From: an uncultured bacterium
GTDB taxonomy: Bacteria; Oederibacteriota; Oederibacteriia; Oederibacteriales; Oederibacteriaceae
Reading direction: 5' to 3'
DNA: 64,000 nt
Assembly (NCBI GenBank): GCA_965112635.1
Contig: OZ218778.1
Span: 2,222,833 to 2,286,832, forward strand
The notes beneath the pieces are model-generated. The model worked only from the letters and a program-made list of their open reading frames with translations, did not search any database and had not been told where the DNA came from. Made by a program: the position numbers and the translations under genes. Below, one piece after another: positions 5,976 to 60,379 of the stretch. Within the stretch, counting starts at the first letter, position 1. Each line of letters opens with the position of its first letter.

Positions 5976-6140
5976 ACAAGTCCAAGGTCAAAAGTCCAAA
6001 GTCCAAGGTAAGAAAAAATTCAAAGCTGAAATATCGAAAAAAGAATTATGTTGAGATTTTTAGCGCTATACTTTAAATGTTTACGGCATAGTTAATGTGC
6101 TATGGATTGAGTTTGTATTTTAACTTTGGACTTTGGACCT
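5973..6140. repeat. intergenic element copy A: GTCCAA(A/G) heptad run plus a conserved ~60-nt core, closed by an inverted GTCCAAAG arm
   Basis: Nucleotides 5978-6010 read aagtccaaggtcaaaagtccaaagtccaaggt. The core ttgagatttttagcgctatactttaaa lies at 6051-6077. The inverted arm ctttggactttggacc lies at 6124-6139. See copy B at 7216-7320. Confidence 0.8.
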
Positions 6141-7218: not shown

Positions 7219-7320
7219 ACAGGGTCCAAAAACAGTCCAAGGTCCAAGGCCTAAAATCCAAAGCCGAAACATCGAAAAAATTACATTGAGATTTTTAGCG
7301 CTATACTTTAAAAGTTTGCG
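7216..7320. repeat. intergenic element copy B (same family as 5973-6140, without the right inverted arm)
   Basis: It reads taaacagggtccaaaaacagtccaaggtccaagg..., followed by a 27-nt core at 7286-7312 that is identical to 6051-6077. The core contains the 8-bp palindrome TAGCGCTA. Confidence 0.8.
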
Positions 7321-7352
7321 AGTGATTTGAAGTGCAACACACCGAGGTATAA

Positions 7353-8285
7353 ATGAATAATCAAAAATTTAAACATAGAATTCTAATTATTTCCGGACCG
7401 ACCGCGGTCGGCAAGACCAGCCTGGCCTGCGAACTGGCCGAGGAGCTCGGGGCTGAGATCATTTCGGCGGACGCTTTCCAGATCTACACCGAGCTCAACC
7501 TCGGCACGGCCAAGCCCAGCCGGGAGGAGCGGGCCCGCGTAGCGCACCATTTGCTGGACATTATTTCCTTTGACCAGCCTTTTAACGCGGCGGAGTTCAG
7601 CGCCAGGGCTTTGGTGGCCATCCGCGACATCAGTAGCCGGGGCAAGATCCCCATGCTGGTGGGCGGCACCTATCTTTACCTGCGGGCTTTGCTGGAGGGA
7701 TTTTTCCCGGCCCCAGCCGCGGACAGCGCGGTCCGTGACCGTCTCCTGGAGACCTCCAAAAAACAGGGGAATGAGGCCCTGCATCAAAAATTACAGCTCG
7801 TGGACCCCGTAGCCGCCAAGGCCATCCATGCCAACGACACTTTGAGGCTCACCCGGGCCCTGGAAGTCTATGAGATCACCGGTAAACCCATTTCCGAGCA
7901 TTGGAAAAAGGGCCAAACCGCGCCCAAACCGTTGTCCGGCTTTGATATCACGGCTATCGCGTGTTTAAGGCCCCGGCAAAAGCTTTATGACCTGGCGGAC
8001 CAGCGGGTGGACCGGATGATGGAGGCCGGCCTGCTGGCTGAAGTCAAAAGCCTGTGCGAAAAGGGTTTTAACGAGACCATGCAGTCTTCTTTCGCCCTGG
8101 GGTACCGGCACCTTTTGCCCGTGGCCAGGGGAAAAGGGGATTTGGGCAAGGCCGTGGAAACTTTTAAGCGGGATACCCGGCACTTTATCAAACGCCAGCT
8201 CACCTGGCTCAAAAATGAGTTCAACTTCACGCCTGTCAATCTGGATAAAACGACCAGCCATCAAGTCCTCGAGTTATTGGCCTAG
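7353..8285 (+). CDS. miaA: tRNA dimethylallyltransferase MiaA
   Basis: 310 aa. It has the P-loop ISGPTAVGKTSLA, the motif ISADAFQIYTELNLGTAKPS, and typical length. Confidence 0.95.
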   Translation: MNNQKFKHRILIISGPTAVGKTSLACELAEELGAEIISADAFQIYTELNLGTAKPSREERARVAHHLLDIISFDQPFNAAEFSARALVAIRDISSRGKIPMLVGGTYLYLRALLEGFFPAPAADSAVRDRLLETSKKQGNEALHQKLQLVDPVAAKAIHANDTLRLTRALEVYEITGKPISEHWKKGQTAPKPLSGFDITAIACLRPRQKLYDLADQRVDRMMEAGLLAEVKSLCEKGFNETMQSSFALGYRHLLPVARGKGDLGKAVETFKRDTRHFIKRQLTWLKNEFNFTPVNLDKTTSHQVLELLA

Positions 8286-10646
8286 TCCAAAAAGTCAGAA
8301 AAACCCACCTTTGGTTGCCACAAAACAGCTACATTTTAATATGCAGTTTTAAAGGAGTTAGTTGCTAATTGCGATAGCGTGAAACTAGAAATACGCCTAT
8401 TGCTAATATTTCCAATACTAAAATAATCTTCAGAAATTGCTTCAAATTTGAAAAATTTAACAAATTAATCCACTTACGCCCATAGGTCTTACACCCGCCT
8501 CAATTTGGACACAAACGCTGTTTATCCCCTGGGAGCAGGCACGGTCAGGTATCTGGCTGTTCCCCAAATCAGCCCAAAACTCTGATAGGATAAAGGTTTT
8601 ACACAGATCAGGCTCTCAGCAGCCCGGAAACTCCCGAGGCTATATATATAAAGAAAGAGACTACGGCGGGAGAACAGGGTGTAGGCTGTAAAGCGATTGT
8701 GTTATAAGGGTTTTGTGTAGAATGTCCCATAGAACGGCGACAAAACTCTTATATTATAAAGGCTTTTTAAAGTTTTCCCGGGTTCTGGGCCTCAACAGGG
8801 CTTCCCAGGTTTTCTCCTTATTCTGGAACGGGAAAAATGGGCGATTTCGCATTTAAATAGGCCTAATTTGAAAAAATCCTAGAGACACATGCAATTACCC
8901 TAGCTTCAAAAAACCCAGAACGGTTAGTTTCCGCCACCTCCAACCCTGGTCAATCTCTAGCCACCGGCCCGGATCCAGCCCGGTCCAGCAGGGGAATTTA
9001 GTATGGAATAACGGAACTTAGCTGTCGTAAACAGACAGGCATCCCTGGTCAGCCCTGGAAAACCCTTAATTCATGAGGCTTTTACAGGCCTATCGCTTTA
9101 ATAAGCTGGCCCTGTCTGGACAGGAAGCAGTTGTTTCGTGGACATTTGGGGGCATAGGATAGCTTTCCAGCAGGGGGAAAGCCCTCTAAACACGAGAGTT
9201 GCTTTAAAATATATGTATTTAGGGGTTGTTTCTGCCGAATCTCCTGCAAATGCAACGGTTTTCGTATTAAATAACAATTTATTAGGTAGGCAAATCTGGG
9301 TTGTTAGAACGGGTATATCTCTCTAAGCCCTTGATTTAATGGTCCTTTTTGACGGCTGGGCCGGTTCTCCCAATACCCTGAATTCGCATCAGAATGAACT
9401 AATTTGAGAAAAAACTATGGAATTAATGAAGTTATATTGCTCTTAAAAGTGGTCTTTTTCTGGACAAAAGGCGGCAAACCAATCCTTAAAGGGACCTTAG
9501 CTGGCTACAGAAACTTAGGAAATGTCCAGGAAATAAGGTATTTCCCAGGTCAGGAACCAGGGTCCCTGATCCACAGGGATTAAAGCCTGAAAACAGGCCA
9601 GGAAATAAGAGATTTGCAGGATGCCGCCTAAATAACAAAGCGGGATTAGGTGAAAAAAGGGAGTATGGGATGAAGAGCGGTAAAGTGCAGAAAAGGCCAT
9701 AAAAACAAGGGTTTTCGCATGAAAATGGCCCTAATTTCGAAGTTTATCGAGAATAAGGGTATATGGGTTAGGTCCGAAAAACACCATTTTCGCTTGTATT
9801 GATAAGGGGAATATACGGGCTGGGGAATAGGTAGACAAGACTCCCCAACGAGCAACAAATCTATTAAATATAATAGATATTATATGTAACAAAATAATTA
9901 TAGTTGAAGTCATTTCTTAGAAATATTAAGAATAGATTTTGTTGCAAATCCAAGCCGAAATTAAACCCTGATTTACAGACTATAATTGGCTTTGGCGGGG
10001 AATTGGGATAACTTCAGCAAATCCAATAGTTTTTGATAACCTAATTCCCAACAAACCATATTAGATAATACCGGTTAACGCTTGCGATAACAAACAAAAT
10101 AATAGTTACTTTTACTAAAACAGAAAGAGACTAGTTTTCCAAGATAGAAAGAGTAAAGCTTAGGTAAATTAGCCTAGCTGCGAACCCTGATCCGGTTAGG
10201 TTGGCAGGGACGGTCTAGAGCCTTGGGTCAAGACCTAGGGCTGGGAGGCTGACCAGGGTCAAGGCCAACGGCTGACCGGACCCGGCCGGCTAGGTGGCCT
10301 TGGTTGGTTCCGGGGGCTGAGGCTAGCTTGACCCCGGGGCTAACTGGAACCCAGAACCGGGAGCTTGGGGTCCAAGGATTGGAAGCCAGGGGAGCCTAAA
10401 CTATCCTGCAGCTGCCTGTTAGGAACCCTTTAAAACTACCTATTATTACAACGTTTATTATCCACAAGATTTCGCAGGTAGTTTGTTAAATAAGGGAATA
10501 AGGGTATCCTGGCCTTAGGTTTTAAATTAAAGCAAAACATTTATACCCTGACTTTAGAAGTGCTGATTCAATGCTTGTCATTACAGCGCTATTATGAACG
10601 AATAATTTAGACCCTTGTTTTTGTGTTTTCGTGTATAATCTGAACC
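8286..10646. other. 2,361-bp region with no credible ORF (longest listed ORF 70 aa); contains dispersed short repeat families, local hairpins, an AT-rich core and a GC-rich self-complementary block
   Basis: The six-frame track shows only 60-70-aa ORFs of low plausibility. I translated several stretches by hand on both strands and hit stops within 10-30 codons. Repeat coordinates are given in the findings. Confidence 0.8.
10634..10639 (+). promoter_or_regulatory. TATAAT -10 box only 7 nt upstream of the ATG at 10647 (candidate leaderless transcript)
   Basis: The sequence is gtgTATAATctgaaccATG. No Shine-Dalgarno sequence fits in the gap. I found no good -35 element. Confidence 0.35.
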
Positions 10647-11567
10647 ATGCAAAACATACCCAACATACCTAAACCAACCTTAAAGTTACTCTTAACCTTG
10701 GTCGGAGTCCTTAACCTGGCCTTTATAGTTTTCCAGCTTCGAGCCTATGACATCCTGACCTGGGTAAGCCAGTCCAGCCTAGACTCGGCCTTTTATCCCT
10801 ATAACACGACCCTATTACTGCGATATTTCATCAGAACCAAGGTTTTCACTCAAGTTTATTTGGTTTTTTTGGCGATTTGGATCGTCCAAATAGAAATCCA
10901 AGGTCAGGAACCCAGAACAACCGCCTGGAGGAACCTGTTCTCGGTCAAAACCTTATTTTTGTGGTTAGGGGCGGGTATAGCCCTCAAAAGCCTGGTTTGG
11001 GCGGGCATCATCTCCGCAACGCCTGTTTACGGCCATAGGCCTATGGCCAGCCTGGGAATCACTATAGAAGGTTGTTTTGTATTAGCTCTAGCCCAAATAG
11101 CCTACAGGACCTATTTTAGCTCTGCAATAGGGGCAGATAGCCCCAAACAGGTGAACCTATTGCTCAAGGTCGTCCAAAGACCAGGAAAGCTCATCCAGGT
11201 GCTTTTGGAAGAGTTCAGCCTCATCCCTCACCAGGTCTATCAACCTAGTGGGGCAAGGACCGCCCCTGAGCCGGTTCCCAGCCCCCAGTCCGCCAGCCAT
11301 GCTGGCGAGACCTCTCGGCCCCCCAAACTGCCTAAGGGCCAGGTCATGGCCAATCTCATCCTGGAATTGGGCCGGTCCAAGGGGACTTTCAAGATGAGGG
11401 ATTTGACCCGCACCTTCCGCAAACACCCCAACTCCATCCTGTATCATCTGAATAAACTCGTAAAAACAGGCCATCTGGCCCGCAAGGGCTCCCGCAGGGC
11501 AACAGTGTATGAGGTGAGCGTTCCTTTGGCCCCAGAGTTGCCTAAGGACCAGGTTTTGTTGGGGTGA
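10647..11567 (+). CDS. membrane-anchored winged-helix DNA-binding protein (about 4 TM helices plus a C-terminal MarR/ArsR-like wHTH)
   Basis: 306 aa. The N-terminal half has hydrophobic segments. A Pro/Ser linker follows. The C-terminal part reads MRDLTRTFRKHPNSILYHLNKLVKTGHLARKGSRRATVYEV. Confidence 0.7.
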   Translation: MQNIPNIPKPTLKLLLTLVGVLNLAFIVFQLRAYDILTWVSQSSLDSAFYPYNTTLLLRYFIRTKVFTQVYLVFLAIWIVQIEIQGQEPRTTAWRNLFSVKTLFLWLGAGIALKSLVWAGIISATPVYGHRPMASLGITIEGCFVLALAQIAYRTYFSSAIGADSPKQVNLLLKVVQRPGKLIQVLLEEFSLIPHQVYQPSGARTAPEPVPSPQSASHAGETSRPPKLPKGQVMANLILELGRSKGTFKMRDLTRTFRKHPNSILYHLNKLVKTGHLARKGSRRATVYEVSVPLAPELPKDQVLLG

Positions 11568-11666: not shown

Positions 11667-12086
11667 ATGAAATTATCAAAATTAGGCGACTTATTTAAAA
11701 AAAGAACGCATAGAATTTTTGCTGCCTGTTTTATTGCCACAACAATTGTTGTGCTTATTTCTGTCAATTTTTTTAAAGCCCATAGCGACATTGCCGTTTG
11801 GTCAATCATATTCATTTTAATTGTTCAATATTTTTTAAGTTTAAGCTTCCCAAAATATTTCTGGATATAGCCTCTTGGTGTCTTTTTGGGATGTTTTATA
11901 ATTTTTGTCGGAGCGGTTTTTTTTACGTTTAAGTTCGGTCTTTCTGGAATTAGTTATCCATTTTATATTTCATCTCTTATAGGTCTTTATTCATATGTTG
12001 CATCGCTCGGTGGATTTTTAACCAGAATAATAGCAAGTAAAATGGGTAACTTAATTTTTCGAAATAAATTTAATAAATCAGTTTAA
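11667..12086 (+). pseudogene. small 4-TM membrane protein reading frame interrupted by a single in-frame TAG (11868-11870)
   Basis: ORFs 11628..11870 and 11886..12086 share one frame (11886-11628 = 258). Translation reads ...SFPKYFWI*PLGVFLGCFIIFVG.... Each half has two hydrophobic helices. The ATG at 11667 is preceded by GGGGAGA. Confidence 0.45.
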
Positions 12087-12104
12087 GTGATAGTTGTTAT
12101 CTGG

Positions 12105-12124
12105 ATTCCCGCTTTCGCGGGAAT
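12105..12124. repeat. REP-like perfect hairpin ATTCCCGC-TTTC-GCGGGAAT, possible terminator after the small membrane ORFs
   Basis: 8-bp perfect stem with a 4-nt loop. On the opposite strand it translates as the IPAKAGIQ-type peptide seen in minus ORF 12083..12265. That peptide is typical of spurious ORFs across palindromic repeats. Confidence 0.6.
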
Positions 12125-12176
12125 GACAAGTGAGCCCAGGGGCGCGGATGGAGAAAAATAAAGGTAGGAGTGAGTT

Positions 12177-35041: not shown

Positions 35042-37448
<2,407 letters not shown>

Positions 37449-37474
37449 TTTAAAAATAATAAATTGGCGGACTA

Positions 37475-38869
37475 ATGCATAAATCAAGAAAACTTGGCAG
37501 GGAATCAGACCCAATCCAGGCCATACTAGAAGACAACAACGATCTGCCCAAAATTTCAATTATTGGGAGTCCTAATGTGGGCAAATCCACTTTGTTCAAT
37601 AGGCTTATTCGTAAAAATATTGCCATTGTGGACAGCACTCCTGGCACAACAAGGGACAGACAAAAAAGAGCTGTTTCTCTGGGAAATGCGCTTGTCTGGC
37701 TGGAAGATTGCGGTGGATTTACAAGAAATAAAGGGGACATTGAAACTGAAATAAACAACAGAGTCATTCAATCGATTACTGAAGCTGCGATAATTATTTA
37801 TGTTTTGGACTTTTTACGAGGTATTAGTGATAGTGATAAAAAATTGCTGGACATTATCAGAAAGCACGAAAATAAATCGGTAATAATTGCTGTAAATAAA
37901 GTGGATAACGACAATTTCATCAATAAAAATCCAAGAACTAAAGAATTTTTGAATTTCGGTTTAGGTATGACGGTCTTTATTTCCGCGTTGCATAATAGAG
38001 GAATACAAGTATTAGAAGACAACTTAAGTGATTTCATTAATAAAAGATTGCAAACGTCGCCCAGCGGTGAATTGCTGACAAAAACTATTTGCATTATAGG
38101 CAGACCAAATGTCGGGAAATCTTCATTGGTCAACGCTCTTTTAGGACAAAATAAAATGATTGTTCACTCAGTTCCAAACACAACGCGAGATTCTGTTGAA
38201 TTTAATATAAAGTTAGAATCGAAGATCCTAACTATCGTTGATACAGCCGGAATTCGGAAAAAGAAACAAATTCAGGGAAATATTGAGGATTTAGCGGTTA
38301 CTAAGTCTTTACTTTATATCAGAAAAAGCGACATGGTACTTTATGTTGTAGATGCTCTTATGGGGATAGAGGACCAGGACAAAAAAATAGCAGGGTACAT
38401 ACATCAAGAAGGAAAGAAGTTAATAATTGTTGTCAATAAATGGGATTTAACAGATGGTTTGGAATCAACAAAAAAACAATACACTAGTGAAATAAAAAGA
38501 ATACTATTTTTTGCTGATTACGCACCAATTGTATTCATTTCAGCTCTAAAAAAGGAAGGTCTTGAAAATTTGAAACTGATGATTGATAATATAGTAGCTG
38601 CTAACGAAAAAACCATCGAACAAAAAGAATTAAATGTAATTTTAAAGGAAATGTCTTCGAAACAAGGATTTTCACGTAAAGGGAAATCTTTTACATTAAA
38701 TTCTTTAACGCAAATTGGGGTCAATCCTCCCAGGTTTTTGATTAAAGTCAGCAGACCAGATCTTTTTCATTTTAGCTTAAGGCGTCAATTGGAAAATAGA
38801 ATCAGAGATAAATTTGGGTTTTTTGGTACAGCTTTGAAAATATATTTGGCTAAAAATCATAAAAACTAA
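37475..38869 (+). CDS. der: ribosome-associated GTPase Der (EngA)
   Basis: 464 aa. It has two GTPase domains (GSPNVGKSTLFN and GRPNVGKSSLVN; DTPG/DTAG; NKVD/NKWD) and a KH-like C-terminus. Confidence 0.95.
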   Translation: MHKSRKLGRESDPIQAILEDNNDLPKISIIGSPNVGKSTLFNRLIRKNIAIVDSTPGTTRDRQKRAVSLGNALVWLEDCGGFTRNKGDIETEINNRVIQSITEAAIIIYVLDFLRGISDSDKKLLDIIRKHENKSVIIAVNKVDNDNFINKNPRTKEFLNFGLGMTVFISALHNRGIQVLEDNLSDFINKRLQTSPSGELLTKTICIIGRPNVGKSSLVNALLGQNKMIVHSVPNTTRDSVEFNIKLESKILTIVDTAGIRKKKQIQGNIEDLAVTKSLLYIRKSDMVLYVVDALMGIEDQDKKIAGYIHQEGKKLIIVVNKWDLTDGLESTKKQYTSEIKRILFFADYAPIVFISALKKEGLENLKLMIDNIVAANEKTIEQKELNVILKEMSSKQGFSRKGKSFTLNSLTQIGVNPPRFLIKVSRPDLFHFSLRRQLENRIRDKFGFFGTALKIYLAKNHKN

Positions 38870-38887
38870 ACGATGGAGTGCTAACTC

Positions 38888-39526
38888 GTGTTGTCTGTAT
38901 TTTTTATTCTTACAGTTTCATATCTAATCGGTTCATTTCCAACGGGGTATATCATAGGAAAACTAAAAGGTATTGATATAAGAAAACAAGGTAGTGGCAA
39001 TATTGGATTTACCAATGTTTACAGGATTCTTGGGCCTTTGCCAGGAATAATTGTATTTATTATCGATTTTTTAAAGGGTTATTTAACTGTCGCCATATTT
39101 TGCAATTATTTTGGGATTATTTTAGATTATCCAGTCAATTCTTGGATAAGAACAGGCGTAGGTTGCGCAGCAATTGCTGGCCATAATTGGAGTGTTTTCT
39201 TAGGTTTTAAAGGAGGCAAGGGCGTCCTGACCAGCGCAGGTGTTTTTTTTGCTTTATCCCCATTGTCAGCAAGCATTACACTAATTTTCTTTATCATTGT
39301 CATATTTATCTGGCACATCATATCTTTAGGTTCTTTGATTTCAGCAATTTTGTTGCCATTTTTAATTTGGATTTTTTCAGAACCCTTACCCGTTCTTTTA
39401 TTAAGTATTTTGGCCTGTTTTTCAATAATATTAAAACATCGAGATAACATTAGAAGACTTATTGAAGGTAATGAGTATTACTTTGTTTTGTTCAAAAAAA
39501 ACAATAAGAAAGCAAAAATATCATAA
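38888..39526 (+). CDS. plsY: glycerol-3-phosphate acyltransferase PlsY
   Basis: 212 aa with a GTG start. Motifs: GSGNIGFTNVYR and HNWSVFLGFKGGKGV. Confidence 0.92.
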   Translation: MLSVFFILTVSYLIGSFPTGYIIGKLKGIDIRKQGSGNIGFTNVYRILGPLPGIIVFIIDFLKGYLTVAIFCNYFGIILDYPVNSWIRTGVGCAAIAGHNWSVFLGFKGGKGVLTSAGVFFALSPLSASITLIFFIIVIFIWHIISLGSLISAILLPFLIWIFSEPLPVLLLSILACFSIILKHRDNIRRLIEGNEYYFVLFKKNNKKAKIS

Positions 39527-39534
39527 AAAACAAG

Positions 39535-40533
39535 CTGAAAATAACAGTATTAGGGGCGGGATCATGGGGCATTACTTTATCTATTTTGTTAAATAATAAA
39601 GGGAATCAAGTTACTTTATGGGATCCTTCTGAAAATTACTTGAAAAAGCTAGGGAAAATAAGGCAAAATAAGGAGCATTTACCAGGAATTACCATACCGG
39701 ATTCTATTAGAATCGAATATAATATTGCTAACACCTTAGCCCTGAGTGATATTATTGTTCTGGCAATAATTTCACAAAAAACGAGGTTAATTATAAAAAA
39801 GTTTGCTCCATTCTTTCCGAAAAGTGCAATTTTTGTTAATGTTTCTAAAGGAATTGAACGGAAATCGCTGAAAACATTATCGCAGGTGTTTAAGGAAGAG
39901 GTGCCCAAATTAATAAGAAATTATTGCGTTTTATCAGGCCCTAGTCATGCGGAAGAAGTTATTAAAAATGTTCCCACAGCTGTAGTAGTTGCTTCAAAAT
40001 CAAGGAAAATTGCAAAAACAATTCAAAATCTTTTTATAACTCGGAATTTTAGAGTTTACACAAGTAATGATGTAGTTGGAGTTGAGTTAGGTTCAGCCTT
40101 AAAAAATGTAATTGCTGTTGCGGCAGGAATAGTTGATGGTATCGGACTAGGAAGTAACACCAAAGCTGCTCTCATTACACGAGGACTTGCTGAAATAACT
40201 AGATTTGCTAAAGCAAAAGGCGGGAAAATCATAACAATTACTGGATTAAGCGGTTTAGGTGACCTAATAGTAACTTGCAATAGTAAATATAGTAGAAATA
40301 GGTTTGTTGGTGAGCAAATTGGGAAAGGTAGCAAATTAATAGATATTCTCAATTCAAGAAAAGATTTTGTTGAAGGAATTCCAACAACTAAAGCAGTTTA
40401 TTTACTTTCAAAAAAAAGTAATATTTCAATGCCCATTACCGAACAAATTTACAATGTAATATTTAAGGAAAAATCACCTATATTAGCCATTAAAGATCTG
40501 ATGACTAGGGCCGGGAAAGCCGAAAATACTTAA
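39535..40533 (+). CDS. gpsA: NAD(P)H-dependent glycerol-3-phosphate dehydrogenase GpsA (start codon unresolved; CTG at 39535 is a provisional choice)
   Basis: The frame is open from 39508. The Rossmann motif ITVLGAGSWG is encoded at 39541-39570, upstream of the TTG (39586) used by the ORF track. No ATG, GTG or TTG occurs in frame between 39508 and 39585. Downstream GpsA blocks include SGPSHAEEV and NVIAVAAGI. Confidence 0.85.
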   Translation: MKITVLGAGSWGITLSILLNNKGNQVTLWDPSENYLKKLGKIRQNKEHLPGITIPDSIRIEYNIANTLALSDIIVLAIISQKTRLIIKKFAPFFPKSAIFVNVSKGIERKSLKTLSQVFKEEVPKLIRNYCVLSGPSHAEEVIKNVPTAVVVASKSRKIAKTIQNLFITRNFRVYTSNDVVGVELGSALKNVIAVAAGIVDGIGLGSNTKAALITRGLAEITRFAKAKGGKIITITGLSGLGDLIVTCNSKYSRNRFVGEQIGKGSKLIDILNSRKDFVEGIPTTKAVYLLSKKSNISMPITEQIYNVIFKEKSPILAIKDLMTRAGKAENT

Positions 40534-40569
40534 GTTTAGAATTTATAATATTTTATGAACTAAGGAGGA

Positions 40570-40854
40570 ATGATGACTAAAGAAGATCTTATAAAAAGTA
40601 TCGGAACTCTTGGATTTTCAAGAAGAAATTCAGTTCTTGCAGTTGAAGCCATACTAAATTCAATTCGAGAATCCTTAAAAAAAGGAAAGCAGGTTAAAAT
40701 TACAGATTTTGGAACATTTTTAATCAAAAAAAGGGCTGCAAGGCAAGGTAGAAATCCCAAAACCGGTGTTTCAGTTCAGATTCCAGCGAAATTAATACCT
40801 CATTTCAAGGCCAGCAAAAATTTAAAGGAGATGGTCAAAGTTGCTCCTAACTAA
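40570..40854 (+). CDS. HU/IHF family DNA-binding protein
   Basis: 94 aa with AAGGAGG upstream. The motif is FGTFLIKKRAARQGRNPKTGVSVQIPAKLIPHFKASKNLK. Confidence 0.9.
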   Translation: MMTKEDLIKSIGTLGFSRRNSVLAVEAILNSIRESLKKGKQVKITDFGTFLIKKRAARQGRNPKTGVSVQIPAKLIPHFKASKNLKEMVKVAPN

Positions 40855-41191
40855 TTTTGTAAACAACAAATTATTCTATTCAATAAGTGAAGTAAGTAGG
40901 TTAACAAAAATTCCTACTTATATACTAAGATATTGGGAAAAGGAATTTAAAGATCTTAAACCAGAGAAAAGTTCGACAGGGCAAAGAAGATATCGATATA
41001 AAGATATTGAAACAGTTAAATTTATTTATAAACTCTTGTATCAGGATATGTTTTCTATAAAAGGCGCAAAACGTAGAATTAAAGAGTTAAAGAAAGAGAA
41101 TAAGCAATTAGGATTTAATCTTGATAGAAAAGAGCCTAATTTATCAAAAGTAATTGAAAAGCTTGAAGAAATAAGGAATTTAATTCAATGA
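40841..41191 (+). CDS. MerR family transcriptional regulator
   Basis: 116 aa. The TTG start overlaps the end of the HU/IHF gene. The HTH region reads YSISEVSRLTKIPTYILRYWEKEF...GQRRYRYKDI. Confidence 0.8.
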   Translation: MLLTNFVNNKLFYSISEVSRLTKIPTYILRYWEKEFKDLKPEKSSTGQRRYRYKDIETVKFIYKLLYQDMFSIKGAKRRIKELKKENKQLGFNLDRKEPNLSKVIEKLEEIRNLIQ

Positions 41192-41235
41192 TAAAGGCCA
41201 TGTCCGGTAATATATATTATGTTAACCTTCTTGTA

Positions 41236-41805
41236 TTAAAAAACACCTTCACAAAACAAAATTCTATTAATCAGCTTAATGGTTTTATTTAAGTCCCTGT
41301 TCACAACAATATAGTCATATAGAAATATCTTGCTTATTTCTTCATTTATTTTTGATAAACGTTTTTTGATTTCGCATTTAACATCAGTGTTTCTTTTTAC
41401 AAGTCTTTTTTTTAAATACGATCTTGAAGGAGGCAAAACAAAAATAGAAACTGTTTTATTGAAAAACTTATCAATATGTTTTTTCCCGTTATAATCGACA
41501 TTTAAAAGAGGGATGTTTCCTAATTTTGTGATACTCCTTAGATTTTGAACGCTTGTGCCATAATAATTGTTATAAATTTTTGCACACTCAATAAAATACC
41601 CTTTATTCAAACGTTTTTTAAATTCATTTGAATTAATAAAGTGATAATCAACATGATCGTTTTCATTATCTCTTGGTGGCCTTGTTGTGAATGATATGCT
41701 TTTAGTTAACGCTTTGTTTAATTTAATTAAACGGTTGGCAATGGTTGTTTTTCCGGTACCTGAGGGCGCTGAAATAACTACTATAACTTTTTTGTTCTTT
41801 CCCAT
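41236..41805 (-). CDS. gmk: guanylate kinase
   Basis: 189 aa. It has the P-loop ISAPSGTGKTT, then SFTTRPPRDNENDHVDYHF and YYGT. Confidence 0.92.
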   Translation of the reverse strand: MGKNKKVIVVISAPSGTGKTTIANRLIKLNKALTKSISFTTRPPRDNENDHVDYHFINSNEFKKRLNKGYFIECAKIYNNYYGTSVQNLRSITKLGNIPLLNVDYNGKKHIDKFFNKTVSIFVLPPSRSYLKKRLVKRNTDVKCEIKKRLSKINEEISKIFLYDYIVVNRDLNKTIKLINRILFCEGVF

Positions 41806-41806
41806 T

Positions 41807-42679
41807 TTATTCTATGTTTTGCGCCTGTTCTCTTATTTTTTCTATCTCTTCTTTAGCTAGTATTGAAAGTTCTATTACATTTATATCATGACACTTAGAA
41901 TTTATAGTATTTAGTTCCCTATTTAATTCTTGGCATAAAAAATCCAAATGCTTGCCGCAATTTTTAGAGTTTTCCAATAAATTCTTTATCTTTATAATAT
42001 GTGAGTTGATTCTGTCAATTTCTTCAGAAATAATATTTCTTTCCAAAAATTTGTTTATAATTTCTACTACTTGTTTTTTTTCGTTATCTTTAGCTGCCAT
42101 TAATAACTTTATGCTTTTTTGAGCCTTTATATATTCATTATTCAAATATTGTTCAATTCTAGCTTTTAATTTATCAATATATTTATGAAATTTAAAAATA
42201 TTTAACAGAATACACTTTTTTAAATAAACTCCTTCAATTCCTTTATCTTTTTTTGTTTTATCTATTATTTTTACTAGGTATTTAATACACTTCTTCCAAA
42301 ATAATTTATTTTCAAATAGATTAATATTCAAACGTTCAATTGACCCTGGTAAAGAAAGTAATTGGAATTCGCCTATATTTTTATATATGCTTCCCAATTT
42401 TGATTTTTTTAATTCATTTAAATAAGCATTAATTTGGTTGGGGTTTAATTTGTAGTTTGTGTTATTGTTATTAAATATATCTACGGTTAAATCAATTTTC
42501 CCTCTATTAAATGACTTTTTTAGTAGTTTAAAAATGAGGTTTTCTTTTTTGAAAGACTTTACGCTTAATTTTAGGTTAATTTCAAGAAATTTTGAATTGA
42601 GAGAGCGTATTTCAATATTTACAGTATGATTCAAATAATAGAAAGTGCCGTATCCATAACCGGTCATGCTACTTATCAT
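41807..42679 (-). CDS. yicC: YicC/YloC family stress-induced protein
   Basis: 290 aa. The N-terminus is SMTGYGYG. The C-terminal coiled-coil region ends EIEKIREQAQNIE. Confidence 0.85.
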   Translation of the reverse strand: MISSMTGYGYGTFYYLNHTVNIEIRSLNSKFLEINLKLSVKSFKKENLIFKLLKKSFNRGKIDLTVDIFNNNNTNYKLNPNQINAYLNELKKSKLGSIYKNIGEFQLLSLPGSIERLNINLFENKLFWKKCIKYLVKIIDKTKKDKGIEGVYLKKCILLNIFKFHKYIDKLKARIEQYLNNEYIKAQKSIKLLMAAKDNEKKQVVEIINKFLERNIISEEIDRINSHIIKIKNLLENSKNCGKHLDFLCQELNRELNTINSKCHDINVIELSILAKEEIEKIREQAQNIE

Positions 42680-42688
42680 TGCGTGGCC

Positions 42689-43414
42689 TTAGAAAGACAA
42701 TCCAAAGCAACCACCTTCTTCATCAGTTGCTGAGGCTTTGGGGGCATTACTTAAAGAACTCGATGTTTTGCTGGTTCCGGTTAGGACCTCAGGTATTTCA
42801 ACAACAGTATGGCTAAGTTTTTCGCGACTTATTTGAGTGTCTTCCATAGTTACAGAGCCAGTTTGCGCAAATGTTTTAGCGCCTTCGATTTGACAATGTT
42901 GAATCATGCAATCCTTGGTCGATTGTTCTCCAAATAGGATGCCCCCCCAGCTTGAAGTTCCCTCGTTTGTAGTGAATAGAATGGGTTTATCATGAGTTCC
43001 CACAGCTTTTAATGTCCCTAATATCTTTAAAACTAAATCCGGTTTTGTTGATGGAAAAATCACATCTCCCCCGAATTTAATCACCACTCCTGGTTCAATG
43101 CTCAGGGTGACTTGCGGCGGTATGATTATGTCTCCAACTATGACATATGGACTATTAGCTGCCCTAAAAGTCATGTTCTCTTTGAAATCACCGCCCGTGA
43201 CGTAAGTTTGTCCATTCACTTTAAACATGGTAATAGGCACATGGACAATCTCCTCTCCTGTGCCTTCCTCCGTTGATGAGGAAGTGGTAACATTTTGAAC
43301 CTGTGGATTGTCACCAGGGTTTGGCTGCTGTCCAAATTGTTCCTGGGCATAGAGAGTCGTAAAAGCTAAAATAAATATTAATAAAAAACATAAACGGCAA
43401 TAATTTCGATACAT
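42689..43414 (-). CDS. secreted hypothetical protein with a beta-helix-like central region
   Basis: 241 aa. The signal peptide is MYRNYCRLCFLLIFILAFTTLYAQE. The central segment GDIIIPPQVTLSIEPGVVIKFGGDVIF...ILFTTNEGTSSWGGILF resembles parallel beta-helix / CASH repeats. Confidence 0.6.
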   Translation of the reverse strand: MYRNYCRLCFLLIFILAFTTLYAQEQFGQQPNPGDNPQVQNVTTSSSTEEGTGEEIVHVPITMFKVNGQTYVTGGDFKENMTFRAANSPYVIVGDIIIPPQVTLSIEPGVVIKFGGDVIFPSTKPDLVLKILGTLKAVGTHDKPILFTTNEGTSSWGGILFGEQSTKDCMIQHCQIEGAKTFAQTGSVTMEDTQISREKLSHTVVEIPEVLTGTSKTSSSLSNAPKASATDEEGGCFGLSF

Positions 43415-43457
43415 AATTTCCTCCCGTAGAAAGCAATTAAACCAGATAAATTAATAA

Positions 43458-44129
43458 TTACAAAGACAAATAATTTTTTTTATAACCTGAGCGGAGTCTG
43501 AAAAGGATGTCCTCTGCCTTATCTTTTTCATTAAGCTTAATATAGCATTCCGCTAAGAAAAACAAAGAACTTGGTACTAGTTTCGATTGGGGTTGATCTT
43601 TTATGAGTTTTTGGAATATTTTAATAGCATTACGAAAATCGTTTTCATAAAAAAAACACTCACCAATTTTATAGCTAATCATATCAACGCATTCAACATC
43701 CCTAAATGTTCTTACGACAAAATTGTAATAATAACAAGACTTCTTAAAATCTTTCTTAAAAAAGCAAGAATCAGCCAATAAAAGCGAAGCATAACTACAG
43801 ACAAATCTATCACTATTGCTGTTCTTTTCAAGGAATCTCACAAAATTATCGTAAGAATTATTGAAACTATTCCTTTCAAATAAATTAATATATCCCATTA
43901 AAATAAGCGCCTTATCTGCATAAGGTGCTTCGTTGCCGTACGAAACAATCTTGCTCAGGCCGGCTTGGGCGCTCCTATAATCACCTTTTTCAAAATCCCT
44001 TAAAGAATCCATATACTGTTTAAGTAATAAATCTTTATCGGCTATTGGCTGGCTGTAGCAACCGAAGCAAATTAAATAAATTAATAAAAATAAAATAAAA
44101 TTATATAGAAGATAAAGGAGGCGCTGCAT
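43458..44129 (-). CDS. TPR-like lipoprotein (BamD/YbgF-like)
   Basis: 223 aa. The lipobox-like N-terminus is LIYLICFGC. TPR-like helical repeats run throughout. Confidence 0.6.
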   Translation of the reverse strand: MQRLLYLLYNFILFLLIYLICFGCYSQPIADKDLLLKQYMDSLRDFEKGDYRSAQAGLSKIVSYGNEAPYADKALILMGYINLFERNSFNNSYDNFVRFLEKNSNSDRFVCSYASLLLADSCFFKKDFKKSCYYYNFVVRTFRDVECVDMISYKIGECFFYENDFRNAIKIFQKLIKDQPQSKLVPSSLFFLAECYIKLNEKDKAEDILFRLRSGYKKNYLSL

Positions 44130-44164
44130 GCGGCCTTATTTTTATCCATTCTTAGAAAGAAATG

Positions 44165-44237
44165 AGCTGATGGTCGGATTTGAACCGACGACCTATCGAT
44201 TACGAATCGATTGCTCTACCAACTGAGCTACATCAGC
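44165..44237 (-). tRNA. tRNA-Thr (anticodon CGT)
   Basis: Hand-folded cloverleaf, 73 nt. Acceptor GCTGATG/CATCAGC; D arm GCTC-AGTTGGTA-GAGC. Anticodon arm ATCGA-TTCGTAA-TCGAT; variable AGGTC. T arm GTCGG-TTCAAAT-CCGAC; discriminator T. CCA is not encoded. Confidence 0.9.
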
Positions 44238-44240
44238 TTC

Positions 44241-44963
44241 TCAAGCGGTCTCAGCTTGCAAATCGATTTTAGTAATATTGATATCACTAAATGCTTTATC
44301 TTGCCATATGATAATCGATTTAATTCTTATTAATTCAAGTAATGCCAAGAATAAAACTACTTTGTGAAGTAGGTTCTGTTGTTTGGCAACGATATCGTTG
44401 AACTGGACTTTCTCATTGTTTGTAAAATAGTCTAAAAGTTCATTGATTTTTTGGCTTATCGATATGTCGTCTTTAGCAATTTCATGGATAAACTCCGGTT
44501 TAAGCTTGTCAGTGATTTCTTTAAAAGTTCCCAGTAAGTCAAAAAGGTCTAATTTCAATATCTCTGTGCCTTTGGAAATATAGGCAACCGCTTTTGAGCC
44601 GCTCCCAAAGATATCCCTTTGCAGCAATTCTTTTTGTTCCAGAGATGTAGCCAAATCTTTGAACTTTTTATACTCTATCAGCCGCTGGATCAGTTCGTCC
44701 TTAGTTTCGTCAACCTCCTCAGGTTGAGTTTCATCCCTGGGAAGCAACATTTTGGACTTTATCTGCATCAAGGTGGATGCCATGACTAAGAATTCTCCTA
44801 TACCCTCCATTTCAAAAAATTTCATTAAATTGACATAGGCAATGAAATCATTAGTGATCTTTAGAATGGGAATATCAAAAATATTAAACTCGTTTTTCCG
44901 GACTAGGTAAAGCAGAAGATCCAAGGGGCCGTCAAACGTATTAAGTTGTAGTGAAAATTCCAT
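44241..44963 (-). CDS. scpA: segregation and condensation protein A
   Basis: 240 aa. The N-terminal motif is FDGPLDLLLYLVRKNEFNIFDIPILKIT. Confidence 0.9.
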   Translation of the reverse strand: MEFSLQLNTFDGPLDLLLYLVRKNEFNIFDIPILKITNDFIAYVNLMKFFEMEGIGEFLVMASTLMQIKSKMLLPRDETQPEEVDETKDELIQRLIEYKKFKDLATSLEQKELLQRDIFGSGSKAVAYISKGTEILKLDLFDLLGTFKEITDKLKPEFIHEIAKDDISISQKINELLDYFTNNEKVQFNDIVAKQQNLLHKVVLFLALLELIRIKSIIIWQDKAFSDINITKIDLQAETA

Positions 44964-44982
44964 TTAATCTCCGCAAATAATA

Positions 44983-45546
44983 TTATTTGCTGGCATTATT
45001 CACAAGGCCAGCGTCCCTGGAGAACAATTGATCAAGTTCGTTGATGGTCGGAAGGTCCTTAAGGTCCTTGAGGCCGAATTGCTGTAAAAATTCCTTCGTG
45101 GTGCCGTAAAGAAAGGGTCTTCCTATCCCCTCCTGCCTTCCGACCAACCTTATCAAATTCCTATCCATTAAAGTATTTAAGACCCCGTCGGAAATCACGC
45201 CCCGAATCGACTCAATCTGGACCTTCGTGACAGGTTGACGGTAAGCGATGATGGCCAAGGTCTCCAAAGCCTGTTTGGACAGTTTATTTGAGATGTTCGC
45301 TTGTAGAAGTTTTTTGATCCAAGGCGCAAAAACCTGCCTAGTGCACATCTGATAACCATTGGCTATTTCAACAATATGAAACCCTCCGGGGTTTTCCTCG
45401 TATTTATTCATAAGTTCCTTAAGGGCGGCTTGTATCAGTTTCGTATCGTTGATGTTTAGCACTTTCTCTACAGTACGAACATCCAAAGGCCCCTCGGAAA
45501 CAAATAAAAGACTTTCCAGAATATCCTTTAACTCGTTCTTTTCCAT
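44983..45546 (-). CDS. scpB: segregation and condensation protein B
   Basis: 187 aa. Motifs: LESLLFVSEGPL, LAIIAYRQPVTK and GRPFLYGTT. Confidence 0.9.
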   Translation of the reverse strand: MEKNELKDILESLLFVSEGPLDVRTVEKVLNINDTKLIQAALKELMNKYEENPGGFHIVEIANGYQMCTRQVFAPWIKKLLQANISNKLSKQALETLAIIAYRQPVTKVQIESIRGVISDGVLNTLMDRNLIRLVGRQEGIGRPFLYGTTKEFLQQFGLKDLKDLPTINELDQLFSRDAGLVNNASK

Positions 45547-45598
45547 ACTTTATCCTCAATACAAAGAAGTTTTAAGAGTTTGTCACTGAAAAAGCAAC

Positions 45599-46510
45599 TC
45601 AGCTCCTGGGATGAAGGTTTTTGTGGTACTTTTTCAAGGAGTCGGCTTCTAAGTGAGTATATATCTGCGTGGTAGAAATGCTAGTGTGTCCTAACATTTC
45701 TTGCACACTTCTTAAATCCGCCCCCCTTTTCAGCAGATGGGTGGCAAACGTGTGACGCAGGGTGTGCGGGGTGATATTGGCAGGTAAACCAGCCTGTCTA
45801 AAATAAAATTTGATTATCTTCCAAATTCCCGTTCGCGAAAATATTTTCCCCGATTTGGTCAGAAACAGATAAGAACTGTTGTATGGGTTAAGGTTAGGCC
45901 GCTGTTTTTGGATGTACGCCTTTAGTCTGATCATAGATGCTCCGCCAAGAGGTATCATCCTTTCTTTGTTTCCCTTACCGATGCATCTTAAATATTCGTT
46001 GTCAAAGTTTATATTTTCAATCTTTAAATTCATTAGCTCTGAGATTCTGAGCCCTGCTCCATAGAGTACTTCCAGCATAGCGATATTTCTTAAAAAAAAA
46101 GGATCCTTTGAATTTTCTAAAGATAGCAGATTTTTTATGTCTTTGAGGGAGATCACTTTTGGTAGCAACTTGGATTTAGCTGGCAATTCAATTTCGGAAA
46201 GTACCGTTTCCCCCAATTCATTCCTAGTGGCCAGGTATTTGTAAAACGATTTAATTGCGCTAATTTTCTGAGAAAGAGAGGAGGCTTGGAGTTTTTTCTC
46301 GCTCAAGTATTTGATATAGAGCGAGACGCCGCGATCGTCCGTGTCTTTAAGTAGGTCGTGATTTTTTTGCGAAAGATAGGCTTTGAATTCCCTAAGAGTC
46401 TTTTCATAGGAGTATATTGTGTTGGCTGACAGCCCTTTTTCCACAGCTAGATAAGTGATAAACCTGGAGATAGAATCTCCCTTTGAATTTTGGTTTATCC
46501 GACGCTTCAT
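45599..46510 (-). CDS. xerD: tyrosine recombinase XerD/XerC family
   Basis: 303 aa. It has an N-terminal SAM-like core-binding domain. The catalytic blocks are GLRISEL, HTLRHTFATHLL and LGHTSISTTQIYTH. Confidence 0.85.
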   Translation of the reverse strand: MKRRINQNSKGDSISRFITYLAVEKGLSANTIYSYEKTLREFKAYLSQKNHDLLKDTDDRGVSLYIKYLSEKKLQASSLSQKISAIKSFYKYLATRNELGETVLSEIELPAKSKLLPKVISLKDIKNLLSLENSKDPFFLRNIAMLEVLYGAGLRISELMNLKIENINFDNEYLRCIGKGNKERMIPLGGASMIRLKAYIQKQRPNLNPYNSSYLFLTKSGKIFSRTGIWKIIKFYFRQAGLPANITPHTLRHTFATHLLKRGADLRSVQEMLGHTSISTTQIYTHLEADSLKKYHKNLHPRS

Positions 46511-46533: not shown

Positions 46534-46616
46534 TGCCGGAGGCGGGACTTGAACCCGCATGACCTTGCGATCGGAGGATTTTGAGTCCTCTGCGTCTGCC
46601 ATTCCACCACTCCGGC
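46534..46616 (-). tRNA. tRNA-Leu (anticodon CAA)
   Basis: Hand-folded, 83 nt. Acceptor GCCGGAG/CTCCGGC; anticodon arm GAGGA-CTCAAAA-TCCTC. It has a long variable arm. T arm GCGGG-TTCAAGT-CCCGC; discriminator A. CCA is not encoded. Confidence 0.88.
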
Positions 46617-54195: not shown

Positions 54196-55110
54196 TCAGG
54201 GGGCGTAATTGAAAACGCCGCCGGACCTATGTTTGGAAATATTCATCCCCACGGTATAGGACCAGGGAGCGGTAACGCTATTTCTGACGACCCATCCCGC
54301 GCAAACAAATTTCCCGGACCCGACCGTCGCGTCCTTGAACGAATGGTTGCAATTGGCGGCAAGGGACATATAAACATCGACATCAACCGGGTAGGCATTG
54401 TTGTTCGTGATCCAGACCCTATCTTCATTGATGCTGGCGGGCCTCTTGGTCAGAATGACCCCGTCTTTCTCTGCAATGATCTGTTCTTTTTTAGGCTGCT
54501 TGGCCTGGGGTTTTTTCCCCTCCGGAGCTGCCGCGGCCGTGTCTTCGGAAGCATCCTTGAGGCCGTCCGTGTCCTCGGAAGCATCAGCTCCTTTGAGCCC
54601 TAAACTGTCGGCAGAACCGATTCCCTTTTCTCCCGTGCTTTCTTCCTCGTCCGGGGAACCCCCTTTCATTTCACCCAGGGCTTGTTTCTTGTTCTGATCA
54701 AACTCCACTTGCCGGCGTTTTTCTTCCGCGGCCCGCCTTTCCTCCGCTGCCTTGGCCTCGTCCGCGTCCTTTTTTTCCGCTCCCATGCGGCGCGCTTCCG
54801 CGGCCTCACGGTCCTGTTCTCCTCTTTGTTGTGAATTATCACTGCCCCCAAAGATCCCCTGCCCAATGGAGTATCCTAAATTATAAGCGGCATTCCCAAC
54901 CGCGTCCGAACCGCCGCCGCTGCCGGAAGAACCCCCTTGACTATCACATCCATGAGCGGCCATTTCGGCAGAGGTACATTCCCCCTCCCAATAAATGGCG
55001 TGTCCGTTCTTCATACAGCCGCAACTGCCGGCCATGGCCAGGGGGCAATGAACAAGGGAGACTATCAGGACGGCTAACAGGCTAAATGAGGATTTATTGG
55101 GTTTTTCCAT
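54196..55110 (-). CDS. secreted hypothetical protein with a Cys-rich N-region, a Gly/Ser tract and a charged coiled-coil segment
   Basis: 304 aa with a signal-like N-terminus SFSLLAVLIVSLVHCPLAMA. The charged tract reads EAAEARRMGAEKKDADEAKAAEERRAAEEKRRQ. Confidence 0.6.
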   Translation of the reverse strand: MEKPNKSSFSLLAVLIVSLVHCPLAMAGSCGCMKNGHAIYWEGECTSAEMAAHGCDSQGGSSGSGGGSDAVGNAAYNLGYSIGQGIFGGSDNSQQRGEQDREAAEARRMGAEKKDADEAKAAEERRAAEEKRRQVEFDQNKKQALGEMKGGSPDEEESTGEKGIGSADSLGLKGADASEDTDGLKDASEDTAAAAPEGKKPQAKQPKKEQIIAEKDGVILTKRPASINEDRVWITNNNAYPVDVDVYMSLAANCNHSFKDATVGSGKFVCAGWVVRNSVTAPWSYTVGMNISKHRSGGVFNYAP

Positions 55111-59495: not shown

Positions 59496-60363
59496 AGGCT
59501 TCTCCTGAATTGGCTCGTTTTCTTGAACTCCCGGACAATAGCCGGGCCGTTGCCTGACTTTAATAACGCTTTCCATTTTTTCAGGTCAGCCTCAAAAATA
59601 CCCAAAGCAGACAGAAGGGCCTCCCTGTTGGTCAGCAGGATATCCCTCCACATGGCCGGGTCGCTGGCGGCGACTCTGGTAGTATCCCGAAAACCCGTTG
59701 AGACCAGTTTTAATATCTGTCCATCGCCGGCCTTTTTCCGGCGTAAAATTTCCGCCAGGATAGATGCCGCCAGATGGGGCAAGTGGCTGGTCAGAGCGAT
59801 GCGCCGGTCATGATCAGCGGCCGGCATGATAAGGGTGCGGCAGCCTGCCTTCTCCCACATCCGCCGGACCCTGGAAACGGCAAGCGGGTTGGAACCGGGA
59901 CCAGGCGTGACAACGCAGAGGCTGTCCTTAAAAAGGTCAACCTGAGAATTCCGGATGCCCGCCTTTTCCGAACCGGCCATGGGATGCGCTCCCACAAAAA
60001 ACAGTTTTTGGGGACAAGGCGCTGCGCTTTACCGGCCATTATTTTTTTGGTGCTGCCGCAGTCTGTCACGATAGTGCCGGGTTTAAGGTAAGGAGCTATC
60101 CTGGCGATGATCTTCAAGGAATCAAGGATAGGCGCGCTGACGACCACCACGGAAGCGTCCTTGACAGCGCTCAAGTCGGTGGTGGCCTGGTGGCAGGCTT
60201 TTAAAGCCAGGGCGATACGAAGTTTTTTGGGATTGCGGCCGATAACCATGACCTTTTTAGCCCAATGTTCTTTCACCAATACCCGGCCCAAAGAGCCTCC
60301 GATCAAACCCGCTCCAATGATAGCCACAACTGGTTTTTGCATGTTCCCGCCTTTTTTCTTCAC
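59492..60363 (-). pseudogene. tyrA: prephenate dehydrogenase TyrA, split by a frameshift in a homopolymer
   Basis: The N-terminal part with the Rossmann motif VAIIGAGLIGGS is in frame with ORF 59791..60363. The C-terminal part (V)GAHPMAGSEKAG... is in frame with ORF 59492..59995. The switch point is the A6 run at 59996-60001 (T6 on the coding strand). One extra T would restore ...NCFFVGAHPMAGSE.... Confidence 0.85.
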
Positions 60364-60379
60364 GGCTTTCGCATTCTCC

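Follow-up and report, generated by a model that had tools for sequence, protein, structure and literature searches.

The 2.36-kb stretch at positions 8286-10646 of the 64,000-nucleotide (nt) window that we analysed, taken from a contig of an uncultured member of the Oederibacteriota, is non-coding on both strands, has no homologue in the collections searched, begins at a sharp break in oligonucleotide composition and carries three non-random copies of a bipartite motif, TTCGCAT-N9-10-CTAATTT (the b-box). It lies outside the known RNA and repeat families, and its repeated motif is genuine but unexplained. Most likely the stretch is ordinary non-coding DNA at the edge of a genomic island. The particular explanation that we favour, with a confidence somewhat short of even, is that a lineage-specific insertion of foreign composition lies directly after miaA and that the stretch is its non-coding left edge, with a few DNA-level motifs embedded in it.

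The stretch fills the space between the stop codon of miaA (7353-8285; PF01715, E 8e-80) and the ATG of an open reading frame (ORF) at 10647-11567, and it is the longest gap of the window, all others having less than a quarter of its length. The runner-up gaps measure 566 nt (with an uncalled ORF of 190 amino acids (aa) inside) and 414 nt. The initial annotation had described the stretch as ORF-free on both strands and this was borne out: the largest ORF on either strand is at most 70 aa from start to stop, the longest stop-free run counts 85 codons (stop to stop), each of the six frames contains 39-56 stops per 833 codons, and no gene was called within the stretch by the gene callers in two assemblies. 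The period-3 signal is absent throughout (z -1.4 to +0.9, versus 4-16 in the flanking genes). Overall the GC content is 42%, and the observed-to-expected (O/E) ratios are 0.62 for CpG, 0.97 for TpA and 1.15 for CTAG.

Nor were remnants of proteins found. Pfam searches of the six-frame translations yielded nothing at E <= 1 except one spurious match (E 0.3), the six frames, concatenated into one query, had no match at E <= 10 among 5.8 billion proteins, and a local tblastn of the stretch with 545 neighbouring ORFs of the same contig produced noise only, as did a tblastn with the Hfq proteins of two relatives (no Hfq remnant in the stretch or in the 85 kb available). The fragments of transposases, phages or pseudogenes for which the initial annotation had suggested a translated search were thus not recognisable in any of these comparisons.

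A missed coding sequence, either as small proteins or through a recoded genetic code, is very improbable, and so is a chimeric assembly. On the minus strand, where they read ...ATGCGAA, the b-boxes each open a tiny ORF (32, 17 or 24 aa), and with TGA as the sole stop a frame of 465 codons appears on that strand. However, the tiny ORFs share their first 2-3 residues only, lack a Shine-Dalgarno sequence and are not conserved, and these candidates were rejected. An alternative genetic code was dismissed as well: reassigning any one stop codon does not produce a long frame, TGA being simply rare in the stretch; table 11 gives normal translations of the flanking genes, and a period-3 signal is lacking. 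As for a chimera, the Logan assembly of ERR11523656 agrees with the window base for base (0 mismatches over 12,128 nt, both junctions spanned), and an independent assembly that is identical makes an assembler-specific chimera unlikely.

The usage of CpG, TpA, CTAG and GATC shifts sharply at the stop codon of miaA, around 8.3 kb. Between 8.4 and 12 kb the CpG O/E is 0.46-0.64 versus a window mean of 0.83 (standard deviation 0.11; window minimum at 10.2-11.4 kb), the TpA O/E is 0.9-1.08 versus a mean of 0.70 (window maximum at 9.6-10.8 kb), and the CTAG O/E reaches 1.6 versus a mean of 0.31. For GATC the O/E lies at 0.0-0.7 between about 7.8 and 19 kb (at most 0.25 at 9.6-14.4 kb), versus mostly 0.9-2.2 in the core upstream. 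Values of this kind were not seen in other intergenic DNA of the window. The stretch and the ORF at 10647-11567 have in common a composition that is foreign to the remainder of the window, and the window-wide extremes lie at 9.6-11.4 kb. Such a difference from the core is what a horizontally acquired island would show. A depletion that is not confined to this block was observed for ACGT (O/E 0.06-0.21 throughout the window), which suggests restriction-site avoidance; GATC is depleted only in the block at 9-19 kb.

The position of the stretch also resembles that of the tracts found at the borders of genomic islands. As had been annotated, it separates core genes (mutL and miaA upstream) from accessory-looking ones (an orphan gene, followed by genes for Sel1, caspase-like and HEAT proteins), and the oligonucleotide shift is abrupt at its start. 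Like such tracts it has a GC content below that of the core, contains neither ORFs nor a period-3 signal, and breaks the miaA-hfq linkage of relatives. It differs from them in the lack of an integrase, a tRNA target, flanking direct repeats and recognisable gene remnants, and in its statistically solid three-copy motif. No mobility markers were found: there is no integrase domain in the neighbouring genes, there are no flanking direct repeats and no tRNA lies nearby. DNA similarity of the stretch to phage and plasmid records was likewise not found.

The gene order mutL-miaA-hfq is familiar from E. coli. In the window mutL and miaA keep the order and strand of this arrangement; the differences are an extra gene of 361 aa between mutL and miaA, and 2.36 kb without an Hfq remnant at the place of hfq. 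In the two nearest MiaA relatives that were examined hfq lies within 40 nt of miaA or overlaps with it, and one of the two has the order mutS-mutL-miaA-hfq. The closest MiaA among the 5.8 billion proteins is only 48% identical and a MiaA search of the contigs of species-representative genomes recovered no relative; judged from these comparisons the lineage is very isolated. We propose that a foreign, lineage-specific block was inserted right after miaA, where the two relatives have hfq, in which case the break in the miaA-hfq linkage, which is widely conserved, marks the insertion point. The first 2.36 kb of the block would then be imported non-coding DNA, or lineage-specific genes that decayed past recognition. 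Most of it, notably 8286-9450, would be unconstrained spacer and not one large structured RNA, and a few short elements, above all the b-box, would be under constraint. The embedded elements would comprise: the three b-boxes, two copies of GAATAAGGGTAT...TTAGGT, an AT-rich palindromic core with promoter-like sites, and a TATAAT for the orphan gene.

The b-box is clearly non-random. The pattern TTCGCAT-N9-10-CTAATTT has three matches in the 64 kb versus 0.00 expected, all on the plus strand and all within the stretch, and these are the places at which the motif had been noticed initially. Copy 1 (TTCGCATTTAAATAGGCCTAATTT, 8846-8869) scores 34.5 bits with a profile of the motif, copy 2 (TTCGCATCAGAATGAACTAATTT, 9383-9405) 26.1 bits, with a spacer one base shorter than that of the other two, and copy 3 (TTCGCATGAAAATGGCCCTAATTT, 9714-9737) 33.1 bits. 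The distances between the copies are 537 and 331 bp. Copies 1 and 3 are alike over a wider span (37 nt, 8833-8869, 76% identity). When bipartite motifs of the 7+7 type (gap 0-30) were sought without a preset pattern, the real sequence had one with three copies, and 0/200 dinucleotide shuffles did. No further copies turned up: neither in the window with searches that allowed 3 mismatches, nor with a sequence-only profile of the three b-boxes on the window plus 10 kb of extra contig (next match E 0.89), nor anywhere else in 85 kb. A 21-base b-box pattern had 0 matches in genome, metagenome and viral collections.

The initial annotation had placed the b-boxes within three degenerate tandem modules, and this part of its description did not hold. 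With the b-boxes masked, the similarity of the flanks (300 nt upstream and 300 nt downstream) is at shuffle level (p 0.06-0.86); alignments that include the b-box reach p 0.002-0.007, driven by a core of about 25-37 nt. A blastn self-comparison of the stretch gave nothing below E = 0.1. Because the flanks are unrelated, it is the core itself that constitutes the conserved part of the b-box.

What the b-box does was approached from its structure and spacing. The consensus RNA structure of the three b-box modules amounts to -0.03 kcal/mol, without a shared fold, and single modules fold like shuffles (z ~0), so that the b-box is more readily understood as a motif of the DNA or of the primary sequence. 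A sigma-70 promoter (TTGACA/TATAAT-like, 16-18 bp apart) was rejected: the halves of the b-box are only 9-10 bp apart and none of the 6 promoter-like sites of the stretch coincides with it. Comparison by eye led us to reject sigma-70, sigma-54, sigma-28, extracytoplasmic function (ECF) and Bacteroidetes-type promoters alike on account of the spacing. Given a core that was kept between randomised flanks, the lack of an RNA fold and a half-site spacing unlike that of any promoter class, we infer that the b-box is bound by a sequence-specific protein, for example a regulator, a prediction made from the sequence.

The same contrast between core and flanks bears on the possibility that the stretch is an ancient, functionless graveyard of lineage-specific protein pseudogenes, with the motifs as relics of paralogous gene starts or promoters. 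Since the adjacent gene is itself an orphan, decayed lineage-specific genes would escape database searches, and the source genes could be hidden in this way. The GC content of 45-50% in 8500-9200 and that of a block with 65% GC further downstream resemble coding GC, and a pattern TTTCG...AAT-N7-AT(G/T) was seen by eye to be common to the boxes and the TATAAT/ATG of the ORF at 10647. Yet a period-3 signal is absent everywhere, the stop density is random, no fragment matches anything, and a box core that was kept while its flanks were fully randomised argues for selection on the core and not for neutral decay. We therefore regard such a graveyard as unlikely.

Three direct copies of a ~24-bp motif in one orientation also bring to mind the maintenance element (origin, partition or recombination site) of an integrated plasmid or integrative and conjugative element (ICE). 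The b-boxes would then be iteron- or centromere-like, the AT-rich core an unwinding or recombination site, and a DnaA box would lie alongside. The foreign composition of the block fits this idea, as do the folding z of about -4 on both strands of the AT-rich core, a symmetry at the DNA level, and a perfect DnaA box (TTATCCACA) at 10458-10466 on the plus strand. However, with 331-537 bp between them the copies are not phased like iterons, the DnaA box is isolated (1 perfect box and 1 with 1 mismatch in the stretch, versus ~0.5 expected), and no GC-skew switch or cumulative skew minimum was found at the stretch. Rep, Par, integrase and relaxase genes were not detectable nearby, nor was similar phage or plasmid DNA. 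We judge a maintenance element to be improbable. Iteron-type plasmid and phage origins and oriC do share with the stretch ~24-bp direct repeats in one orientation, an AT-rich core with inverted repeats and a perfect DnaA box, but here the repeats are hundreds of bp apart, and a cluster of DnaA boxes, a skew switch and an initiator gene are lacking. An iteron origin or partition site was accordingly rejected (537 and 331 bp between copies, neighbouring genes without a Rep or Par domain), as was an oriC or terminus (single perfect DnaA box, no cluster, no skew switch).

Integron attC sites, or clusters of attC sites lacking integron-integrases (CALIN), were compared by eye. In module 3 the sequence GGCCCTAA (9726-9733) faces TTAGGTCC (9768-9775), GTTAGGT fits GTTRRRY, and the boxes are found at cassette-like distances. 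Modules 1 and 2, on the other hand, lack the partner on the 3' side, the inverse core has AAT and not AAC at its end, and neither cassette ORFs nor an integrase are present. With complementary ends (RYYYAAC ... GTTRRRY) in only 1/3 modules, an attC cluster was discarded. A CRISPR or tandem-repeat array with regular 24-48-nt repeats was rejected too: Tandem Repeats Finder (TRF) shows micro-repeats of 16-23 nt only, and a separate repeat search (find_repeats) gave no regularly spaced family.

The other two boxes that had been annotated fared differently. Box (c), GAATAAGGGTAT-N5-7-TTAGGT, is present on the plus strand in both of the copies that were claimed: GAATAAGGGTAT-N5-TTAGGT at 9751-9773, 14 nt downstream of b-box copy 3, and GAATAAGGGTAT-N7-TTAGGT at 10496-10520, with a b-box-like half site (GATTTCGCAG) upstream at 10468-10477. 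A 12+6 pair like that of box (c) arose in 2/500 shuffles, by a statistic that was defined after the data were seen. The statistics of boxes (b) and (c) agree with the earlier statement that the stretch is not random sequence. Box (a), the YCCAGCAGGGGAA box, has only two good copies, which share the 11-mer TCCAGCAGGGG at 8984 and 9166; those at 8615 and 9524 are poor. As exact repeats of 11-12 nt arise in most shuffles, box (a) is at chance level. TTAGGT itself, reported to recur at least six times, occurs 6 times on the plus strand and once on the minus strand, and the plus strand is likewise preferred by TTCG[CT][AG]T (5:0) and TTTCG (8:2). The plus strand is purine-rich in 9500-9800.

We then considered whether the stretch might encode RNA. 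At gathering thresholds Rfam 15 detects no family in the stretch (two tRNAs elsewhere in the window pass), and relaxed scans of the stretch and of its GC-rich block (E <= 10, relaxed filters) gave best E-values of 0.12-1.2 with scores far below threshold, the match at E 0.12 being to a snoRNA model. ARAGORN found neither tRNA nor tmRNA in the stretch. Inspection by eye had failed to match any part of it to RNase P, tmRNA, the signal recognition particle (SRP) RNA, 6S RNA, domain V of a group II intron or a CRISPR array, and the Rfam, ARAGORN and repeat searches agree with this. Folding was assessed by the z-score of the minimum free energy (MFE) with respect to dinucleotide shuffles, in a sliding scan of 150 nt on both strands, with 122 control windows from elsewhere in the window. 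On both strands 8286-9450 folds like shuffled sequence (z ~0). Windows with z < -3 number 5/96 inside the stretch, and 2/122 controls reach z -3.3. A single large structured RNA, one of the candidates that had been put forward, is unlikely in view of the lack of an Rfam match below E = 0.1, of a folding excess in 8286-9450 and of a consensus structure of the boxes.

One part that stands out in the folding scan is a GC-rich block (65% GC) at 10196-10345. On the plus strand it is predicted to form a closing stem with two hairpins (-79.6 kcal/mol, z -3.56), a stability attained by 0/200 shuffles, the MFE structure making up 15% of the ensemble; on the minus strand z is only -1.47. The wider block, 10150-10440, has a z of only -1.5. 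The folding predictions are suggestive of a candidate small structured RNA at 10196-10345 and do not demonstrate one, control windows also reaching z -3.3.

This block is central to the possible but unlikely alternative that the plus strand of the stretch encodes one or more lineage-specific non-coding RNAs, among them a GC-rich RNA of ~150 nt (10196-10345) with transcription from the AT-rich core. The b-boxes would then be conserved promoter or 5' elements of further transcripts. All motif copies are on the plus strand, the block stands out in an AT-rich setting by a stability that is greater on that strand, promoter-like sites are found on the same strand at 10033-10062 and 10075-10103, and windows with z < -3 are more frequent in the stretch than among the controls. 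Against this stand the absence of an Rfam match, the modest z of the whole GC block, the controls that come close to the best z, box modules without a common fold, and the lack of homologues and hence of covariation support. In addition, the promoter-like sites are not enriched (6 versus 4.4 expected) and the plus strand has no intrinsic terminator, the only terminator-like site of the stretch (1 versus 4.4 expected) being on the minus strand. A functional RNA locus of the lineage in hfq's usual place, with a new GC-rich RNA of ~150 nt and b-box-marked transcripts outside the described families, is in our estimation a doubtful prospect.

With the large RNAs OLE, GOLLD, ROOL and HEARO the stretch has in common its ORF-free length and a well-folding GC-rich block in AT-rich sequence; it differs in that no Rfam model matches it even at E <= 10, that half of it folds like shuffles and that, at 2.36 kb, it exceeds each of these RNAs severalfold in length. 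Similarity to the CsrB/RsmZ sponge RNAs was noted at 9500-9630, which contains four CAGGA (five AGGA) as well as AGG(G/A) and has a plus-strand MFE z of -2.5 to -3.0. In contrast to these RNAs, it carries AGGA at the density (5 per 150 nt) that ordinary coding windows elsewhere show as well, the AGGA motifs lie outside the predicted hairpin loops and there is no Rfam match; a CsrB-like GGA cluster was rejected as not enriched.

The AT-rich core (9840-10140; 27-35% GC) that precedes the GC-rich block, in the succession given by the initial annotation, contains nested inverted repeats. They include the palindrome ATCTATTA-AATA-TAATAGAT at 9859-9878, which had been annotated together with that at 9111-9124 and is indeed present, like the latter, and a pair of arms at 9882-9895 and 9936-9949. 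In 9800-10000 the folding z is about -4, and because this holds for both strands it points to a symmetry of the DNA itself, that of inverted repeats. Four of the 6 promoter-like sites of the stretch lie in or beside the core, one of them, on the minus strand at 9838-9810, immediately upstream. A dif-like reading of 9878-9895 was dismissed by eye. A TATAAT hexamer occurs on the plus strand at 10634-10639, 7 nt before the ATG of the ORF at 10647, which has no Shine-Dalgarno sequence; it is probably the promoter of a leaderless mRNA of this ORF. The palindromic core and this TATAAT could plausibly serve the transcription of the first gene of the island.

Several observations weigh against our favoured explanation of a foreign, largely unconstrained island edge. 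The foreign origin is deduced from the composition of one genome, at a boundary without an integrase, an att repeat or a tRNA. Bacteria usually delete useless DNA, so that the persistence of 2.4 kb hints at a function. For the predicted binding to the b-box no candidate protein was identified, and to our knowledge its half-site spacing of 16-17 bp matches no promoter class. Finally, the GC-rich block folds better on the plus than on the minus strand, and the strand-biased words together with the purine-rich sequence at 9500-9800 would also fit a plus-strand transcript.

The ORF at 10647-11567 (plus strand) encodes a hydrophobic protein of 306 aa and has a weak period-3 signal (z 1.9-3.6) and a CpG O/E of 0.46, the minimum of the window. 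It is an orphan: no homologues were found in the 5.8 billion proteins, and phmmer, run exhaustively against 1.84 billion representatives, gave none either. Most other genes of the window have a canonical Shine-Dalgarno sequence and several have TTGACA/TATAAT-like promoters. The orphan ORF is followed by genes for a Sel1-repeat, a Sel1 plus caspase-like and a HEAT-repeat protein, and then by further unknowns. Within this accessory block a second AT-rich gap (11871-12176; 306 nt, 36% GC) contains a perfect hairpin, ATTCCCGC-TTTC-GCGGGAAT, shortly before the first Sel1 gene.

Upstream of the stretch, the intergenic sequences 5976-6132 and 7219-7352 are ~79% identical over ~130 nt and have the exact 27-mer TTGAGATTTTTAGCGCTATACTTTAAA in common; on this similarity they are a duplicated regulatory or promoter module before two adjacent genes, that of the 361-aa protein and miaA. 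Tandem heptads GTCCAARG were found just past the stops of mutL and the 361-aa gene (5980-6008 and 7235-7249, plus strand) and an inverted pair at the start of the ORF at 6133 (6124-6138, minus strand); the window contains 15 matches versus 5.35 expected. At 8286, after the stop of miaA, there is a weaker GTCCAAAAAGTC. The likeness of the start of the stretch to the duplicated module was unconvincing.

Elsewhere in the window three further features were noted. The segment 55150-55219, upstream of an unknown ORF of 304 aa (54196-55110, minus strand), carries CTTAGGTCAA in four exact copies (three of them direct, with 12-13 bp spacing, and one inverted) and in one copy with 1 mismatch, and by its arrangement looks like an operator array; the sequence GGTCAAA recalls CtsR-type heptads. 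A link between this cluster at 55.1 kb and the stretch was unsupported. The region at ~36000-46000 has a GC content of 25-35% versus ~52% elsewhere, with tRNA genes at 44165-44237 and 46534-46616 (minus strand), and is probably a second acquired island. The 566-nt gap (59814-60379) lies between convergent genes and has a coding-like GC content of 55%; the 190-aa ORF at 59791-60363 (minus strand) may be a real gene.

If the stretch is only the spacer at the edge of an island, it cautions that long ORF-free tracts in deep-branching metagenome-assembled genomes need not be RNA genes, and that composition breaks can account for such tracts. Were the RNA interpretation right, an unexplored lineage would have yielded a new class of RNA, though no result makes that interpretation likely. 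The three-copy motif, for its part, is a concrete and testable candidate binding site in a lineage that has no MiaA relative above 48% identity.

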